8,594 nt of DNA, from positions 1 through 8,594 of IMG/VR virus record IMGVR_UViG_2690316210_000003, one strand, 5' to 3'. Shown here piece after piece: positions 1 to 6,024 of this stretch. The first letter of the stretch is position 1. Each line of letters begins with the position of its first letter. Position numbers and translations under genes: made by a program. Below the pieces are notes generated by a model that was not told the DNA's origin, did not search any database, and was given only the letters and a program-made list of their open reading frames with translations. Origin of the DNA: a virus. Taxonomy: Duplodnaviria > Heunggongvirae > Uroviricota > Caudoviricetes.

Positions 1-986
1 GGAAAATCGATACTGGAAAAACTCTAACTCGGTGGCCAGTTTTTGTTGACCACTTCAACGCGAATATGTCACTGGCAACGTTCTATAACACTGTCTTAGG
101 CGAAACCTTCGATGATCTTAACGAAGACCGCACAGCCGACGAACTGGAAACGCTGAAAACTGATATTAGCCTAGACAATATTCCTGATGATGTATTGGCT
201 CTGGTAGGTGGAGTTGACCAGCAAAAAGACCGTCTGGAATCTACCTTGCTGGGTATTTCTCGTAAAGGGATATGTGTAGTTGATCACCGATCATTCTATG
301 ATGTGAACTGCGAACGCCACGAATCACTAGCATATAACCAGCTTTACAACTTCCTGAAAGCGAAATTCTATACCCGATCCGGTGAACGAATCCCGATGTT
401 ATCTGCTTTCGTGGACTCATCGAACGGACGAGCTACAAACGTGATCTATCGATTCTGTAGTCGGTGGCAAAATCTAACCGCCATTAAAGGCGCAAGCAAT
501 GTTGATGCTCCAATCCTTCCGGTAAAAGACACAAGAACGGGCGGTTTTACCCTTAAAATTCTGGGCGTAAACAACCTTAAAACGATGATCCGTGAAATGA
601 TTAACCGGAACTTGAGAGATGGCGATCCTCACACTGTCTTCCAGATTGGTGACGTTCCTGATGACTACTGCGAGCAATTGCTATCTGAACAGTTGAAACG
701 GCAGGGTAATACCACACGTTGGGTAAAAGTTGGACAAGCACGAAACGAGGCTCTCGACTGCCTGGCTTATTCCTATGCTGCTTCTCGTCATGTGCTCAAT
801 AAAATGTCATGGGAAAAACTCGAAGCCATCAAAGATAGTTTGAACCGCGAACCAGAAGAATCCGTAAAAGCTCCTGAAACGCAATCTGACGAGCAAATCG
901 AAGAAACTAAGCCAATCACACGACCACAACGTCAAAACATCGCCAGACGCCCAAATAGAGGCCGTAGCTGGGTAACATCGTTCTAA
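1..986 (+). CDS. Probable terminase large subunit, C-terminal portion (5'-partial; gene starts upstream of window)
   Basis: The frame of the listed 66..986 ORF is open from the first full codon (nt 3) to TAA at 984-986. ATG at 66 has no Shine-Dalgarno upstream (aacgcgaatATG), so it is probably an internal Met. Placement directly upstream of the portal candidate fits a packaging ATPase/nuclease; the C-terminal RNEALDCLAYSYAA segment resembles lambda gpA-like terminases from memory only. Confidence 0.55.
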   Translation, partial: KIDTGKTLTRWPVFVDHFNANMSLATFYNTVLGETFDDLNEDRTADELETLKTDISLDNIPDDVLALVGGVDQQKDRLESTLLGISRKGICVVDHRSFYDVNCERHESLAYNQLYNFLKAKFYTRSGERIPMLSAFVDSSNGRATNVIYRFCSRWQNLTAIKGASNVDAPILPVKDTRTGGFTLKILGVNNLKTMIREMINRNLRDGDPHTVFQIGDVPDDYCEQLLSEQLKRQGNTTRWVKVGQARNEALDCLAYSYAASRHVLNKMSWEKLEAIKDSLNREPEESVKAPETQSDEQIEETKPITRPQRQNIARRPNRGRSWVTSF

Positions 987-992
987 TAACTC

Positions 993-1010
993 GCCGTCCT
1001 TCGGGGCGGC
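993..1010 (+). promoter_or_regulatory. GC-rich RNA stem-loop with UUCG tetraloop, no U-tract
   Basis: gccgtcc-ttcg-ggggcggc forms a 7-bp stem (one G-U pair) closing a UUCG loop, 7 nt after the terminase stop; the following sequence (ttactcc) is not U-rich, so it is not a classical intrinsic terminator. Confidence 0.45.
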
Positions 1011-1022
1011 TTACTCCTAAAT

Positions 1023-1042
1023 ATTGTTAATCCAATAACAAT
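1023..1042. repeat. 7-bp inverted repeat ATTGTTA-N6-TAACAAT upstream of the 164-aa gene
   Basis: Perfect 7-bp arms with a 6-nt spacer, read directly from the sequence; AT-rich, so chance occurrence is not excluded. Confidence 0.3.
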
Positions 1043-1046
1043 TAAA

Positions 1047-1058
1047 TAAGGGGTAATT
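1047..1058 (+). promoter_or_regulatory. Ribosome-binding site (ATAAGGGGTAAT motif)
   Basis: AAGGGG core 5 nt upstream of ATG 1059; same extended motif recurs at 1549, 5304 and 6012. Confidence 0.7.
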
Positions 1059-1553
1059 ATGAGTTTAGAACTAATTCCCTTAGTAATTCGTAAAGGCGAA
1101 AAAATCACGCTGGCGAATGAAGAGGGTGTAACAATTCAGGTAGGAAATAGTAAAGGTATCATTTATCAGGTTGATGATTCTCCGGCTAATCACGAGATTA
1201 AAACTCTCTCATTCGAGATAGGTAAATATACCATCGTAATAACTTTGGAAGAAGAACTGGTATCAATGCAGGAATTAACTGTTTTGCCAGTATTCGCCAA
1301 ACAATCCAAAAAAGAATATCTGCGGGAAACTATCGCCTTAATCGAGCAAGTTATTTTCGCCCGTTTATCTGGGGACGAAGCCGCATTATCTCAAATGACC
1401 GTGAAAGGAAATACTTTCGCCTATGAGTCATTGGCTGTTCTCCAGACTCTAAAAGTCGATTATGAACGTCAACTGTCTAAATTAATTCAAGCCGAACGAC
1501 GTAAACAGGGAATTAGCCCGATTAAAAATATCAAATTACGTCTTACGCGATAA
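1059..1553 (+). CDS. Hypothetical protein (164 aa), unknown function
   Basis: ATG with strong upstream RBS; stop TAA 1551-1553 overlaps the RBS of the next gene. No motif I can recognise. Sits between terminase and portal, where lambda has W, but is much longer than W. Confidence 0.8.
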   Translation: MSLELIPLVIRKGEKITLANEEGVTIQVGNSKGIIYQVDDSPANHEIKTLSFEIGKYTIVITLEEELVSMQELTVLPVFAKQSKKEYLRETIALIEQVIFARLSGDEAALSQMTVKGNTFAYESLAVLQTLKVDYERQLSKLIQAERRKQGISPIKNIKLRLTR

Positions 1554-1563
1554 GGGGTAAATC
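1549..1563 (+). promoter_or_regulatory. Ribosome-binding site overlapping upstream stop codon (ATAAGGGGTAAATC)
   Basis: TAA stop of the 164-aa gene (1551-1553) is the first three bases of the TAAGGGG element; ATG 1564 follows 6 nt after GGGG. Confidence 0.7.
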
Positions 1564-3075
1564 ATGTTTAATCTTTTTCGACGCAAAAAGGCGGTAGAAA
1601 CTCCAGTTAAAACTAATCACCGCCAGCAACAACCAAAAATTTTCATCGATAAGCAAGTAGAAAAATTTCAGAAAGACCTGAATACACGTTCATTGGGATT
1701 AGTTGGTGATCGCATTGATGGATCGCTTCAACAAGATACTATCACAGGAACCTTCAATAAGGCTCTCAAATCGAACGGTAAGCGCCTTTATGATCAGGGT
1801 CGTACTCTGGCTATAAACAATGCTGTAGGCAAGCGATACAAGCAGTATATCGTTGACCAAGTTGTTGGTACGGGGCTTGATCCGAAACCATCAATCGTTA
1901 AATCAAATGGCAAACTTGACACCGCACTGAATAAGCAGATCGAGAATGCTTTCTGGAAGTGGGCGCAGAGTGCTAAACGCTTCTCTCGCAACGGTCGCTT
2001 TAACTTCCGTGAAATGCTGGCAATGGCAGAATCTGAACGTGTTCAGGGTGGAGAATGCTTCATCGTTTTAACCAAAGAGAACAATGAGTTACAAGTTTCT
2101 ATTCTGTCTGCTGATAGGTGCGACTGGTCGCTTAGTCGTGAAATAAGCAAAGAACGTGCGATCTATCAGGGGATTGAGTATGACGTAGACACAATGCGCC
2201 CTGTAGCATACTGGTTTAGAAAAATCAATCTACTGACTCAGACCTACACTGGCGAAAATTATCGCGTAGATGCTTCTCAGGTGTGCCACTACTACCAGCC
2301 ACTGTGCGCGGAAAGTTTACGTGGTGTGACTGACTTCCTGCCAGTGATTAAGGATATTGCGCATCAAGAAGCGTTCCGCGAAACCGCGATCGTCCAGAAA
2401 CGTATTGCAGCTAGCTCTATGGGCTTTATTGAACGTCCGAAAGATTCTGGTGACGATTTTGATACTGGTGAAGAGGATGAACAATATCAAGCGCCGGAAG
2501 TAGTACAGGACTTTGCACCGGGTACTATTCAGGAATTGCCGGAAGGGGCAACAATCAAGAGCATTCAATCATCGCAAAATGGCGATGACTTTAACAGCTT
2601 CAATGATGCGATGTTCACTAGCGTATCAATGGGCTTAGGCGTGTTCAAACAGGGCTTAACAGGAGATTGTTCACAGATCAACTACTCAGCCGCACGTTTT
2701 GGGGAACTAACCCAGCGTAACCGCATTAAAGCACTGCAAAACAAATTGATTGAAACAGTGGTATTGCCAATTTTTGAAGCATATCTACGCCATTATTCCG
2801 CGCGTGGTATTGTTCCGATTCGTATTACTGCAATTCCGCATATTATCGATAATACAACTATTATTCGTCCGCGTTTTGAATCCGTCGATCCTATTAAAGA
2901 CGTAAACGCCGAGATTGCTTTAATTCAAAATGGTCTTAAATCACGTACTGCCGTTATATTAGAACGTGGTGATGATCCTGAAAAAGTATTCTCAGAGATT
3001 CAAGCCGAAAAGAGCGCACTAAATATTATCGTTGATGGCGAGGGTGAAGAAAAAAATTCCCCAGCCGATCCCTAA
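1564..3075 (+). CDS. Probable portal protein (503 aa)
   Basis: Size typical of portals, position between terminase and protease/capsid, acidic C-terminal tail (DGEGEEKNSPADP). Assignment is by synteny and size, not a verified homology hit. Confidence 0.6.
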   Translation: MFNLFRRKKAVETPVKTNHRQQQPKIFIDKQVEKFQKDLNTRSLGLVGDRIDGSLQQDTITGTFNKALKSNGKRLYDQGRTLAINNAVGKRYKQYIVDQVVGTGLDPKPSIVKSNGKLDTALNKQIENAFWKWAQSAKRFSRNGRFNFREMLAMAESERVQGGECFIVLTKENNELQVSILSADRCDWSLSREISKERAIYQGIEYDVDTMRPVAYWFRKINLLTQTYTGENYRVDASQVCHYYQPLCAESLRGVTDFLPVIKDIAHQEAFRETAIVQKRIAASSMGFIERPKDSGDDFDTGEEDEQYQAPEVVQDFAPGTIQELPEGATIKSIQSSQNGDDFNSFNDAMFTSVSMGLGVFKQGLTGDCSQINYSAARFGELTQRNRIKALQNKLIETVVLPIFEAYLRHYSARGIVPIRITAIPHIIDNTTIIRPRFESVDPIKDVNAEIALIQNGLKSRTAVILERGDDPEKVFSEIQAEKSALNIIVDGEGEEKNSPADP

Positions 3076-3083
3076 TAACCAAC

Positions 3084-3100
3084 GGGGGCGCAATGCCCCC
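3084..3100 (+). promoter_or_regulatory. GC-rich stem-loop (GGGGGC/GCCCCC), no U-tract
   Basis: gggggc-gcaat-gccccc, 6-bp G:C stem 8 nt after the portal stop and 20 nt before ATG 3121; followed by aattaatt rather than a T-run. Confidence 0.45.
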
Positions 3101-3108
3101 AATTAATT

Positions 3109-3120
3109 AAAGGTGATTAA
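3109..3120 (+). promoter_or_regulatory. Ribosome-binding site (AAAGGTGATTAA)
   Basis: AGGTGA 4 nt upstream of ATG 3121. Confidence 0.65.
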
Positions 3121-3630
3121 ATGCTTAAATTTCGCCGCGAACTTAACGGTTACGGTGGAGTTATTAACGAAGGGCATACTGATCAATACGAATTTGAAAT
3201 TGCTTTCTCCAGTGAACAGCCTTATCAGCGCCAATTCTGGGATGAGCAAAATCAAGAAATGGTGGTATTAGATGAAATTCTGGTACATACACCGGAAGCG
3301 GTTGATCTGTCTCGTCTGAATAATAACGCTCCGTTGCTGTTTAATCATAATTTCGATAATCATTTAGGTGTCGTTTGTAACGCTCGAATCGATGCGGATA
3401 AAGTAGGCCGTGCGACCGTTAGATTCTCTAAGCATGGCACTTTGGCTAATGATATTCGTAATAAAGTCATTGAAGGTACGATGGAAAAAATTTCTGTCGG
3501 CTATGACATTAAAGAATATCACATCGATTATGCCAAAGGACAATTGATTGTTACTAAGTTTGTTCCTTTCGAATTAAGTTTTGTTACGGTCCCGGCGGAC
3601 GATTCGGTCGGTTTAAATCGCTCTCTAAAT
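3121..3630 (+). other. HK97-type prohead protease domain (approximate bounds)
   Basis: Candidate catalytic His76 and Ser125 are 49 residues apart; I recall the same spacing for HK97 gp4 (His65/Ser114), unverified. Confidence 0.5.
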
Positions 3631-5124
3631 ACTATCACAGTTAATTTGGAGGCTAAACGCGATATGACTAAAGAACAAATTGAAGAAATCAAAGAAGAAC
3701 AAGAATCCGCTCAGGTTGAAGAAACTCCGGTAGAAGAAATTAAAGAATCGGAAGTTGAAGAAACTCAAGAGCGCCAAGTTGAAGAGAATAAAGAAGATGA
3801 AAATCTCGAAGACGGAAAAGACGCTGAACATCCTGAAAGTGTTGATGATGATAGTTCAACTGTTCGGGAAACAGAAGAAGTAAAAGAAGAACGTGAAGCT
3901 GCTCCGGTTGAAGAAGAAAAAACCGAGGAAGTGGCTGAACGTTCCGAAGAAGACGAATTAGAAATCCGCGAAATTGCACGCGAGCTAAATATTAACGACG
4001 AAGAATTAGAACGCGCATTGGCAGTTAAAGACATGACGCCGGAAGCATTCCGCACTAAGGCACTAAATAACATTACCAATGCTCAACGTATTAACGAACA
4101 ACAAATTAAGGACTCTAAAATGGAAAAAACTTTTGACCTGAACAACGTAATTCGCTCTCTGGTAGATGGTGAAGCTCTGGGTGCTCACGAAGCCGAGTTT
4201 TCTGCAATGGCTGCTACTGCAACTATGCAGCGTGGTCGTGCTGCTCGTGGTGGCTCTGTATTCGTTCCGGCTGCTGCTATGCGTGCTGCTGCTGCTGGTA
4301 ACACCAAAGCTGACCTGACTGCTATCACTGACGAAAAACTGATGACTGAATCCTACATCGAAATGCTGATGCCGGAATCCGTTCTGGGTCGTCTGGGTGT
4401 GACTGTTTATAGTGGCTTGACTGCTCCGACCGCTATTCCAAAAATGACTAAATCCAGCGTTGACGCTTTCGGCTTCGTTGATGAAAACGGTGCTGCACCG
4501 GAAGGCAAAGCTGAATTTGCAAACGTGAAACTGTCTCCTAAGACTTTTGCTGGTGGGAACCCGATCAGCCGCCAGAGCATCAAAACCGTACCGGGCATCG
4601 CTACCCTGATCACTGATCACATCAACCAGGCTGTTCGCATCAAACTGGAACAACTGATTCTGTCTGACAAAGCTAACGATCGTGGTCCGGCTGGTCTGGT
4701 TAAACAACTGGTAGACGCTAGCCGCGTTGAGAAGAAAGCTGCTTTCACCTACAAAGACTTCCTGAAAGAAATTGCTAAACTGACCGACGCTGGCGTTCCG
4801 GCACAGTCCATCAAGTTTGCAATGAGCGGTGCAACTGCTGCTGAACTGGAATCTACCCTGAAAGATAACGGCGTTTCTGGTTATATCATCGAAAACGGCA
4901 AACTGGCTGGTTACGAAGTAGTTACTTCTGGTGTTATTCCGGCAGACCACATCGTTCTGGGTGACTTCTCCGGTATTACTATCGGTGAGTGGGGCGGTCT
5001 GGAACTGGATATGGACGACACCACCTACCGCGCACAGTCCGCTATCGTTCCGCGTATCTGGGTAGATCTGGATTATGTAGTTACCCAGCCGGAAGCTCTG
5101 AAAGTTCTTCACGTCTCCGAATGA
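3121..5124 (+). CDS. Prohead protease - scaffold-like acidic segment - major capsid protein fusion ORF (667 aa)
   Basis: Single uninterrupted ORF. The N-terminal ~170 aa carry HK97-type prohead protease (S78/U35-like) motifs as I remember them: LLFNHNFDNHLG (His76), KISVGYDI (Ser125), ELSFVTVPADD. Residues ~182-333 are Glu-rich and low-complexity, like a scaffold/delta domain. Residues 334-667 are Ala/Gly-rich with strongly optimised codons, typical of a major capsid protein. Confidence 0.75.
   Translation: MLKFRRELNGYGGVINEGHTDQYEFEIAFSSEQPYQRQFWDEQNQEMVVLDEILVHTPEAVDLSRLNNNAPLLFNHNFDNHLGVVCNARIDADKVGRATVRFSKHGTLANDIRNKVIEGTMEKISVGYDIKEYHIDYAKGQLIVTKFVPFELSFVTVPADDSVGLNRSLNTITVNLEAKRDMTKEQIEEIKEEQESAQVEETPVEEIKESEVEETQERQVEENKEDENLEDGKDAEHPESVDDDSSTVRETEEVKEEREAAPVEEEKTEEVAERSEEDELEIREIARELNINDEELERALAVKDMTPEAFRTKALNNITNAQRINEQQIKDSKMEKTFDLNNVIRSLVDGEALGAHEAEFSAMAATATMQRGRAARGGSVFVPAAAMRAAAAGNTKADLTAITDEKLMTESYIEMLMPESVLGRLGVTVYSGLTAPTAIPKMTKSSVDAFGFVDENGAAPEGKAEFANVKLSPKTFAGGNPISRQSIKTVPGIATLITDHINQAVRIKLEQLILSDKANDRGPAGLVKQLVDASRVEKKAAFTYKDFLKEIAKLTDAGVPAQSIKFAMSGATAAELESTLKDNGVSGYIIENGKLAGYEVVTSGVIPADHIVLGDFSGITIGEWGGLELDMDDTTYRAQSAIVPRIWVDLDYVVTQPEALKVLHVSE
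3664..4119 (+). other. Glu-rich scaffold/delta-like segment with in-frame internal ATG at 3664
   Basis: About 150 residues dominated by E/K/V with 39-bp periodic GTTGAAGAA(ACT) repeats (3715, 3754, 3778); GGAGG at 3648-3652 lies 11 nt upstream of the in-frame ATG 3664. Confidence 0.45.
4120..5124 (+). other. Major capsid protein domain (HK97-fold candidate) with in-frame internal ATG at 4120
   Basis: AAGGA at 4108-4112 lies 7 nt upstream of ATG 4120 (MEKTFDL...). From here to the stop, Leu is almost exclusively CTG and Arg CGT, with Gly GGT and Ala GCT favoured, unlike the upstream part of the same ORF. Confidence 0.6.
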
Positions 5125-5146
5125 ACTAGCTTAGAACCTTCTGAAC

Positions 5147-5167
5147 CTTCCCCCGATTTGGGGGAAG
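5147..5167 (+). promoter_or_regulatory. Perfect 8-bp stem-loop (CTTCCCCC-gattt-GGGGGAAG) 22 nt downstream of the capsid stop
   Basis: Read directly; followed by purine-rich sequence, no U-tract. Confidence 0.5.
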
Positions 5168-5261
5168 AAAATCTGATTCCATCTCAGGAAGAAGAAGTTC
5201 AAGAGGTTACGGCGAAAGCCACAGTTAAAAAAGAACGTAAGACTAAAGCAAAATAATAATT

Positions 5262-5288
5262 AGCCCTGCCTAACGGTGGGGCTTTTTT
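5262..5288 (+). terminator. Rho-independent terminator after the capsid gene
   Basis: agccctgcc-taac-ggtggggct forms a 9-bp stem (two G-U pairs) followed immediately by TTTTT(T); located after the TAATAA double stop. Confidence 0.7.
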
Positions 5289-5303
5289 GTATGTAAATAC
5301 TCC

Positions 5304-5318
5304 ATAAAGGGGGTAACT
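5304..5318 (+). promoter_or_regulatory. Ribosome-binding site (ATAAAGGGGGTAACT)
   Basis: GGGGG 5 nt upstream of ATG 5319; begins only ~15 nt after the terminator U-tract. Confidence 0.7.
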
Positions 5319-5609
5319 ATGTTCAAATTATCAGAATCACAATTATCAAGAATGTTTAAGAGTGCTCCTGTATTTGTGGTGGAAGGTGGTAAATCAATTC
5401 GTGCTTACCATGAAATTACTACTACCGACGAACAAGGGGTAATTACAGAATCAGAATTTCTATTTTGTCGTGAGGGAGACTTAAATCAGGGTGATGTTGT
5501 CATTGTAGACGGTGAACGCTTCAAAGTTCAATACGTTAAGCGCAATGGTGATAATACTTCTGATTGCTTTATTGCTCGTGCAGGGGGTACACATGCTCGC
5601 TACCGTTAA
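5319..5609 (+). CDS. Small virion protein (96 aa), possible head-tail adaptor/head-closure protein
   Basis: Strong RBS; the C-terminal GDVVIVDGERFKVQYV segment resembles the end of head-tail joining proteins as I recall them. Position is immediately downstream of the capsid gene. Function tentative. Confidence 0.75.
   Translation: MFKLSESQLSRMFKSAPVFVVEGGKSIRAYHEITTTDEQGVITESEFLFCREGDLNQGDVVIVDGERFKVQYVKRNGDNTSDCFIARAGGTHARYR
5582..5592 (+). promoter_or_regulatory. Ribosome-binding site embedded in the 3' coding end of the 96-aa gene (AGGGGGTACAC)
   Basis: GGGGGTA + 3 nt + ATG 5593, same geometry as the RBSs at 1059, 5319 and 6025. Confidence 0.6.
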
Positions 5610-6015
5610 TAATATGCCGAGACTGAAAATCAAACGCGCCTTGCAAGATATTATCGAACAAGATTTAGGTCTGGCTTTAAACGTAGAACAAACTCAGCAA
5701 GGCTTTAGTGATGACGTGGTTTGTTGGATTACTGGCATGAATGAAACTTATACGCGTGTTCGTGGTGGTAATGCAATGCAAGCTGAATGCGTTATCGAAA
5801 TGCAGTTGTATTCTCAGAATCATGAAACAAAAATCCATGAGGGTATTTGCCAGATAATCCAGATTCAGCCGGATAACCCACGATTTAAAGATTTGGGCTT
5901 CTCTATTTCAGATATCACTCCAGTAGCTTCTAATACCGATTATGACGATGATTCTAGTGATGGGGGTATCGTTGGGACACTTAGCCTTAAATTTTCTTAT
6001 CTAGCGCGTTTTTAA
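5593..6015 (+). CDS. Hypothetical structural protein (141 aa from ATG 5593), possible connector/tail-completion protein
   Basis: Same frame as the listed 5512..6015 ORF, but 5512 is a GTG with no RBS inside the upstream gene; ATG 5593 has the conserved RBS. Overlaps the upstream gene by 17 nt. ATG 5614 is an alternative start without a recognisable RBS. Confidence 0.7.
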   Translation: MLATVNNMPRLKIKRALQDIIEQDLGLALNVEQTQQGFSDDVVCWITGMNETYTRVRGGNAMQAECVIEMQLYSQNHETKIHEGICQIIQIQPDNPRFKDLGFSISDITPVASNTDYDDDSSDGGIVGTLSLKFSYLARF

Positions 6016-6024
6016 GGGGTAATA
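6012..6024 (+). promoter_or_regulatory. Ribosome-binding site overlapping upstream stop (TTAAGGGGTAATA)
   Basis: TAA stop 6013-6015 forms the start of TAAGGGG; ATG 6025 lies 5 nt after GGGG. Confidence 0.7.

Follow-up and report, generated by a model that had tools for sequence, protein, structure and literature searches.

A hairpin resembling a transcription terminator stands between the major capsid gene and the ribosome-binding site of the following gene in the tailed-phage record IMGVR_UViG_2690316210_000003 of IMG/VR, raising the question of how the genes behind it are transcribed and where the capsid protein in front of it ends. The stretch analyzed here, called the window in the following, comprises positions 1 to 8,594 of this record (8,594 nt) and is the late operon of an Escherichia coli (E. 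coli) prophage. With moderate confidence, we favor a twofold answer: a functional terminator at 5262–5288 would close the head-gene unit of this temperate, R4C/HK97-like prophage, and the capsid gene would end in a leaky UGA codon giving access to a C-terminal extension.

The site 5262–5288 is the top-scoring terminator-like site in the window. The first-pass annotation, made from the sequence alone, had described a hairpin plus T-run ending at 5288, and this description is borne out: a 9-bp stem is followed by six T (5283–5288) and folds at about −15 kcal/mol. The hairpin alone reaches −15.0 kcal/mol (z = −3.4), a stability found in none of 200 dinucleotide shuffles, and −15.9 kcal/mol (z = −3.7) together with its flanks. 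It has the anatomy expected of an intrinsic terminator, i.e., a GC-rich stem of ~5–14 bp, a loop of 3–8 nt and a U-tract beginning 0–2 nt after the stem. Sites matching the generic terminator pattern are no more frequent in the window than expected (7 observed vs 7.7 expected); therefore, the case for function rests on conservation and not on the pattern. Scanning 4900–5500 against Rfam at E ≤ 10 returned merely sub-threshold terminator look-alikes and zero known RNA families.

To assess conservation, we compared about 63 loci, consisting of 15 from E. coli, 32 from the viral collection IMG/VR, and further metagenome or viral contigs found by anchoring on the terminator and the ribosome-binding site. 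Hairpin and U-tract are present in all of them, and the U-tract is invariant. The loop varies (TAAC, TTAAC, TTAAT, TTAT) and is enlarged in the L036 and L014/L015 types, while the stem changes solely in pair-preserving ways, from U.G to C-G (L108) and from G.U to G-C (L036, L014/L015). In a clade with capsids only 36–38% identical (Atlantibacter and metagenomic phages, nine loci), a non-homologous terminator occupies the same position, between the capsid stop and the ribosome-binding site of the FII-like homolog, and is followed by homologous N termini (M-x-K-F/L-S). This terminator exists as AGCGCTCC/GGGGCGCT and as GGCAATCC/GGGTTGCC, with compensatory changes at three pairs between the two versions. 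A close cultured phage relative is lacking in GenBank, where the top match, Escherichia phage DCP80 (44% identity), has yet another terminator at this place, GGGAGCC-TTCG-GGTTCCC followed by six T. Judged by these sequences, 5262–5288 is a canonical, strongly conserved Rho-independent terminator, and the succession of capsid gene, terminator and ribosome-binding site appears to be recurrent and selected, though not universal.

Only 18 nt separate the T-run from the Shine-Dalgarno sequence of the next gene, and 30 nt separate it from the ATG at 5319. The first-pass annotation was right in placing a ribosome-binding site directly after the terminator, although the Shine-Dalgarno sequence lies at 5307–5313 and not at 5304. 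Its claim that no recognizable sigma-70 promoter fits in between agrees with a scan for sigma-70 consensus promoters, to which the search was limited and which was empty on the plus strand from 4445 to 6374. An efficient terminator combined with an unrecognized promoter of another kind, situated within or just after the hairpin and requiring, for example, an activator or a different sigma factor, would escape such a scan. Such a promoter could explain why 5289–5318 is nearly invariant: there are no changes up to the Shine-Dalgarno sequence, and L010, L015 and L136 alone deviate in the final bases ahead of the ATG; these three relatives can have different first codons, too. This invariance is, however, common to the whole downstream gene block. 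Moreover, 30 nt are too short for a −35 element, a −10 element and a leader with a Shine-Dalgarno sequence, and the best −10-like hexamers, as read by eye, match 3–4 of 6 positions and have no −35 partner. We therefore consider a hidden promoter very improbable.

With no promoter after the terminator, the neck and tail genes from 5319 onward would be transcribed only by polymerases that read through it. Host RNA polymerase coming from the terL, portal and capsid genes would reach the terminator 30 nt before the next gene, and the likely outcome is that capsid message exceeds downstream message and that the 3′ end of the capsid mRNA is protected by the hairpin. Attenuation by partial terminator read-through is plausible, given the precedent of Tphi in phage T7. 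The purpose suggested for it in the first-pass annotation, more message for the capsid than for three genes of 12-copy connector proteins, needs revision: the third of these genes (6025–6858) matches a major tail protein (phrog_158), which is made in high copy number. As the downstream block includes this probable major tail protein, a stoichiometry of capsid versus 12-copy connector is too simple.

The same annotation had implied that the upstream reading frame ends beside the hairpin. Instead, the first stop of the capsid gene is TGA at 5122–5124, 137 nt upstream, and the capsid frame remains open behind it up to a tandem stop adjoining the hairpin. Among the relatives, we found 32 distinct versions of the stretch between the capsid TGA and the terminator. 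TGA-A is constant in all of them while the codons on both sides vary; it is never TAA, and a sense codon in place of TGA was found at none of the ~63 loci. In the capsid frame, none of the 32 variants contains a stop within the extension, compared with 1–2 stops in frame +1 and 1–7 in frame +2. The tandem stop reads TAATAA in 29 of the 32 variants and TGATAA in the remaining three, and TT followed by AGCCC always comes next. The extensions fall into seven length classes (90, 93, 108, 135, 138, 141 and 144 nt), all of them multiples of three, so that six or more indels must have occurred without loss of the frame. By a naive estimate, the probability of this is ~0.001, a value to be read with the fact that slippage in GAA/AAA repeats favors 3-nt steps. 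The extension module is also joined in frame to a second capsid lineage (L013–L015) that is 39% identical in the capsid domain. In distant relatives without the extension, the capsid stop is TAA in 49 of 50 cases, often as TAA-TAA. The ends of the predicted peptides comprise four basic tail sequences, KKERKTKAK, KKQRKTKE, KK(V/A)GRPPKAK and KRGRKPKE, in which the basic character is kept. Twenty-two of 55 single-nucleotide codon variants are synonymous (40% vs 25% expected; synonymous to non-synonymous 22:33).

Thus, two features expected of read-through genes are found here, a conserved stop context prone to read-through and an open downstream ORF (open reading frame) in the same frame with frame-preserving indels. 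On this basis, we consider it likely that 5125–5253 is translated by UGA read-through into a loosely constrained, probably disordered tail. NCBI PGAP ends the capsid gene at the TGA in every relative. In the searchable literature, no tailed phage turned up whose capsid gene is described as undergoing stop-codon read-through, which is absence of evidence only.

The extension also carries RNA structure. An 8-bp hairpin at 5147–5167 (−15.9 kcal/mol, z = −3.6) has stems that are invariant in the 24 long variants while flanking codons vary, and the short extension type has an unrelated 12-bp hairpin ~10 nt after the UGA (−16.9 kcal/mol). Equally stable structures arose in only 55 of 2,000 synonymous recodings of the long type and in 7 of 2,000 of the short type, i.e., the native sequences beat 97% and 99.6% of them. 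That both native hairpins are more stable than nearly all recodings suggests selection at the RNA level, perhaps for slowing the ribosome at the stop codon. Among six sequences of the short-type hairpin, one change is compensatory, three affect one side of a pair and one breaks a pair; this covariation is suggestive, though not significant, as 53–58 of 500 shuffles reach it. Also near the UGA, a 23-nt imperfect inverted repeat (78%; 5088–5110 and 5191–5213) brackets the stop codon and the first hairpin; by reading of the sequences, its 3′ arm differs in most other extension variants.

These hairpins, together with the terminator, resemble the 3′ end from which a small RNA could be released, and 5125–5253 might accordingly be an untranslated, structured 3′ region, possibly giving rise to a small RNA ending at the terminator, with the open frame a coincidence. 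The codon-position bias is indeed weak, and 43 codons of this composition would remain open by chance with a probability of ~0.10. It is hard to see in this case why the capsid frame, and no other, is open in each of the 32 variants, why at least six indel events all preserved this frame, why the TGA never became TAA while neighboring codons varied, and why the tandem stop closes exactly the capsid frame. The basic character retained across four different tail sequences and the lack of an Rfam match speak against an untranslated region as well, which we consider unlikely.

Other ways of using this stretch were tried and rejected. An independent small gene within 5125–5260 has a TTG-started ORF at 5158–5256 as its sole candidate, which lacks a Shine-Dalgarno sequence and has its TTG in a hairpin loop; some relatives have TCG in place of this TTG, and the short type lacks it. 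Insertion of selenocysteine directed by a bacterial SECIS (selenocysteine insertion sequence) would require a specific SelB-binding hairpin with a conserved apical loop directly 3′ of the UGA. It was rejected, as the hairpins of the long and short extensions are unrelated, differ in apical loop (GAUUU and GAAA) and stand at unequal distances from the UGA; even at E ≤ 10, no Rfam family reached its threshold. A suppressor tRNA or a reassigned genetic code found no basis either, with no tRNA in the window or prophage and the other ORFs intact under table 11; the single tRNA-Ser detected lies in the chromosomal flank, outside the prophage.

In phage DCP80 (L099, PQ671644; 4399–4560), the capsid stop is TAA, and the 115-nt spacer before the terminator is open in the −1 frame. 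This frame ends ...DAAPVKKSKSASG, resembling the basic tail of the E. coli extension, and the spacer could be a frameshift-accessed counterpart of the extension. The DCP80 record is filed as a 141-kb Straboviridae genome yet begins with a lambda/HK97-like head module, which suggests a chimeric assembly.

Several points weigh against the explanation favored here. Six distant clades or loci have no terminator after the capsid gene, the next gene starting a few nucleotides after the capsid stop; thus, this head module does not strictly need the element. The position of the high-copy tail tube gene, behind the terminator, speaks against strong attenuation, and a second stable hairpin (6885–6904; −16.1 kcal/mol, z = −3.6), with no good U-tract, follows that other abundant structural gene, the major tail gene; its pattern is matched in 14 of 33 relatives examined. 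Both observations would suit a barrier that stabilizes or processes mRNA 3′ ends, with the hairpin shielding the capsid message from 3′ exonucleases or insulating the downstream genes in the lysogen; alternatively, the late polymerase might ignore the terminator through phage antitermination, and in either case transcription would hardly drop, if at all, during lytic growth. What sets the terminator apart from a mere stabilizing hairpin is its perfect six-U tract, which is invariant, and neither a Q-like or other antiterminator nor a late activator was recognized among the 10 non-structural ORFs of the prophage in Pfam and PHROGs searches, which were not exhaustive. We hold this pair of explanations to be quite unlikely. 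On the side of translation, selection on the extension peptide is weak, with 14, 19 and 19 variable sites by codon position and no third-position excess, and indels of 3 nt in GAA/AAA repeats may be mechanistically favored. The fused capsid-extension protein was not found in a database of 5.8 billion proteins, a weak negative because the word-index search yielded only three candidates. Finally, UGA may be read through less in natural E. coli than in strain K-12. K-12 carries a weaker variant of release factor 2 (Thr246), and natural backgrounds with Ala246 exist.

If the leaky stop operates as we propose, the unit closed by the terminator consists of the capsid ORF plus 43 in-frame codons up to TAA-TAA. 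UGA is the leakiest stop codon (PMC5289835), and UGA before A is prone to misreading by tRNA-Trp in E. coli according to Engelberg-Kulka 1981, as cited in PMC5289835; reporters in E. coli K-12 gave UGA read-through of 2–4% (PMC10570021). A few per cent of the ribosomes would thus insert an amino acid, most likely Trp, at the UGA and produce a minor capsid form with ~44 additional residues, made up of an acidic linker and a basic tail; the predicted junction peptide is ALKVLHVSE-W-TSLEPSEPSPDLGEE. Among solved structures, the capsid protein of roseophage R4C (8GTA) is closest; this siphophage has a T=7 shell of 415 copies. Read-through of 2–5% across the 415 subunits of such a shell would correspond to ~8–20 extended subunits per particle. 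As most ribosomes would leave at the UGA, the polymerase would cross 137 untranslated nucleotides and meet the terminator uncoupled from translation.

With a leaky UGA 137 nt upstream and the stops of a translated extension abutting the hairpin, the terminator would probably be controlled in another way. Measured to the hairpin, the UGA is 137 nt away but the tandem stop no more than 2–5 nt, a spacing that does not vary. In the E. coli lambda tR2 system of Li et al., termination was ~90% with the stop codon more than 30 bp away and fell from ~90% to <10% when the stop was moved from 28 bp to 5 bp, an effect lost when translation was uncoupled (PMC4824070). Taken with these data, the position of the tandem stop implies that a leading ribosome which has read through the UGA should disarm the terminator. 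The hairpin might therefore be a ribosome-gated attenuator: a leading ribosome at TAA-TAA would cover the 5′ arm (5262 onward) and block termination, the terminator would be intrinsically efficient, and translational read-through would be coupled to transcription of the neck and tail genes. When pairing of the 5′ arm was prohibited in silico, AAAGCCACA at 5215–5223 became the partner of the 3′ arm, a complementarity that may be due to chance. Read-through of 2–5% would nevertheless add little to the intrinsic leak and would matter only with a very tight terminator or with read-through above background, and ribosome and polymerase would have to be tightly coupled at that very moment. Genome compaction alone commonly puts stop codons against terminators, and the distant clade that has terminators lacks an extension, its stop being 17–20 nt away from the hairpin. 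An attenuator of this kind is unlikely in our view, and we are more doubtful still about a two-level switch in which the same read-through ribosomes make the tail-bearing capsid subunit and disarm the terminator. In such a switch, only transcripts translated beyond the UGA would extend into the neck and tail genes, and the hairpin after the UGA would tune the read-through rate.

AAAGCCACA itself is an 8-of-9 complement of the terminator 3′ arm (5277–5285; −7.4 vs −15 kcal/mol), and by reading of the sequence, not by computation, the pairing would be 9 of 9 in variants with GCCCCA. An A-run in Lys codons (5227–5233) is complementary to the U-tract (5282–5288). A designed antiterminator RNA structure was rejected, as there is just the 8-of-9 complement and no designed partner in the short type.

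Coordinates of the features discussed, in the numbering of the window
Feature	Coordinates	Strand	Remarks
Terminase large subunit, C-terminal part	66–986		
Small head-tail joining protein (W-like)	1059–1553		
Lambda-family portal	1564–3075		
S78 prohead protease, acidic scaffold-like linker and HK97-fold major capsid protein, fused ORF	3121–5124	+	667 codons; first stop TGA
UGA-A context, proposed leaky capsid stop	5122–5125	+	TGA then A in 32/32 distinct variants and ~63/63 sequences
In-frame extension, 43 codons, 129 nt: TSLEPSEPSPDLGEENLIPSQEEEVQEVTAKATVKKERKTKAK	5125–5253	+	Acidic/proline-rich linker, then basic tail
8-bp hairpin CTTCCCCC/GGGGGAAG	5147–5167	+	Inside extension, 22 nt after UGA
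Tandem stop TAA-TAA	5254–5259	+	2 nt upstream of terminator hairpin
Terminator hairpin AGCCCTGCC-TAAC-GGTGGGGCT	5262–5283	+	9-bp stem, 6 G-C pairs, 4-nt loop; then TTTTTG
U-tract, six T	5283–5288	+	First T closes the stem
Shine-Dalgarno sequence AAGGGGG	5307–5313	+	5 nt upstream of ATG 5319
Head-tail attachment gene (lambda FII-like), 96 aa	5319–5609	+	Would be first gene dependent on terminator read-through
140-aa gene, no assigned function	5593–6015	+	17-nt overlap with preceding gene
Putative major tail protein, 277 aa, high-copy	6025–6858	+	phrog_158, E = 1.4e-8
Second GC-rich hairpin GGGGAGG-TTAA-CGCCTCCC	6885–6904	+	Between major tail and tail-fiber genes; poor U-tract TTATTCCTGTTTT
Tail fiber	6932 to window end		

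The fused capsid ORF matches Peptidase_S78 (E = 1.8e-10) and Phage_capsid (E = 3.2e-25) in Pfam as well as the major head protein family phrog_617 (E = 4e-91). Its linker at 3660–4020 (residues ~185–300), between the S78 protease and the HK97 domain, is highly acidic, contains tandem repeats at 3710–3796 and is probably a built-in scaffolding (delta-like) domain; the low-complexity composition of this stretch leads to long spurious ORFs on the minus strand. Assignment of the FII-like gene rests on a match to Pfam Phage_attach (E = 2.1e-5) of 25.5 bits, slightly below the 26-bit cut-off. For the 140-aa gene, the NCBI PGAP annotation of relatives agrees with our ORF start scan, and its product had no family match in Pfam or PHROGs. 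It starts at ATG 5593 after GGGGG, 17 nt inside the 3′ end of the FII-like gene, and this overlap at 5593–5609 suggests translational coupling of the two. A ribosome-binding site of the AAGGGGTAA type precedes four window genes (1059, 1564, 6025 and 5319). Five of seven genes in the window stop with TAA, and the sole TGA besides that of the capsid gene belongs to the major tail gene, which ends TGA-T with an in-frame TAA three codons on. In the tail-fiber gene, the segment 7799–8556 has 85% nucleotide identity to the distal long tail fiber gene (gp37) of the T4-like phage RB49 and 74–81% to many other T-even-type phages, which looks like a tail-fiber module exchange between temperate prophage and virulent myoviruses.

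Relatives with 74–96% nucleotide identity exist in 54 of 5,426 complete E. coli genomes, for example as a ~36-kb element in ycdX of strain PEC41. In this prophage (L001, 6186–14285), the small and large terminase genes are ~7.5 kb apart, with hypothetical genes on the opposite strand, a regulator of the Rha family and a transposase-like gene between them, and the tail region is interrupted by an IS5 element. This copy may be rearranged or defective.

Taken alone, the terminator would be a well-conserved but ordinary instance of an arrangement already known, in which a leaky terminator comes right after the capsid gene. T7 has Tphi directly behind capsid gene 10, and expression of its genes 11 and 12 depends entirely on read-through of Tphi (PMC5592923); the capsid protein exists as isoforms 10A (344 aa) and 10B (397 aa), the latter made by −1 frameshift recoding (PMC5592923, PMC3276506, PMC5009743). 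This 10A/10B-Tphi arrangement is the closest architectural parallel, having in common with our locus a minor C-terminal capsid extension (here proposed), a terminator just after the extended frame and promoter-less next genes, which encode tail tubular proteins in T7 and neck and tail proteins here. T7 reaches its extension by a −1 frameshift, whereas the frame behind the UGA is here the zero frame, and a frameshift is not what the locus calls for. Tphi is read by T7 RNA polymerase, in contrast to a host-type intrinsic terminator in a temperate siphovirus-like prophage. Moreover, the capsid protein is here fused to a protease, and there is no sequence homology.

With regard to the stop codon, the counterpart is phage Qbeta, in which the UGA of the coat gene is read through at ~5% by a host tRNA, yielding the minor extended subunit A1 (PMC7026636). 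A capsid gene ending in UGA and a minor extended subunit, here a proposed one, are common to both. The coat fold of Qbeta, a single-stranded RNA levivirus, is unrelated, and A1 is extended by a folded domain of 196 aa that is essential for infection, compared with 28–45 residues of low-complexity appearance here. As in the lambda tR2 reporter and the pyrBI attenuator, a stop codon lies a few nucleotides from a hairpin, and a terminating ribosome could block its folding; in those systems every ribosome reaches the nearby stop, whereas here only those that have passed the UGA 129 nt upstream would do so.

Read-through in eukaryotic viruses is stimulated by 3′ RNA structures, such as the pseudoknot of murine leukemia virus (MuLV) and stem-loops of alphaviruses and related viruses (PMC3159437). 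A stable structure ~8–22 nt after the leaky stop and suppressed synonymous variation have their likeness in our locus. The spacing is 22 nt for the core hairpin of the long type and ~10 nt for the short type. To our knowledge, no such 3′ stimulator of read-through has been established for bacterial ribosomes except SECIS.

Together, terminator and extension probably represent a T7-type capsid and terminator design combined with a Qbeta-type UGA read-through in a tailed double-stranded DNA prophage. UGA read-through, in place of the frameshifting in T7 and Listeria phages, appears to be the means by which a widespread E. coli prophage family lengthens its HK97-fold capsid protein. If this is true, annotation pipelines miss such isoforms, and the family offers a natural test system for the stimulation of bacterial read-through by 3′ hairpins and for the gating of an intrinsic terminator by read-through. 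If the two-level switch were true as well, it would be the first reported programmed stop-codon read-through in the capsid gene of a tailed double-stranded DNA phage and the first attenuator gated by translational read-through. A translated extension would make this capsid gene the DNA-phage counterpart of the textbook case of Qbeta.

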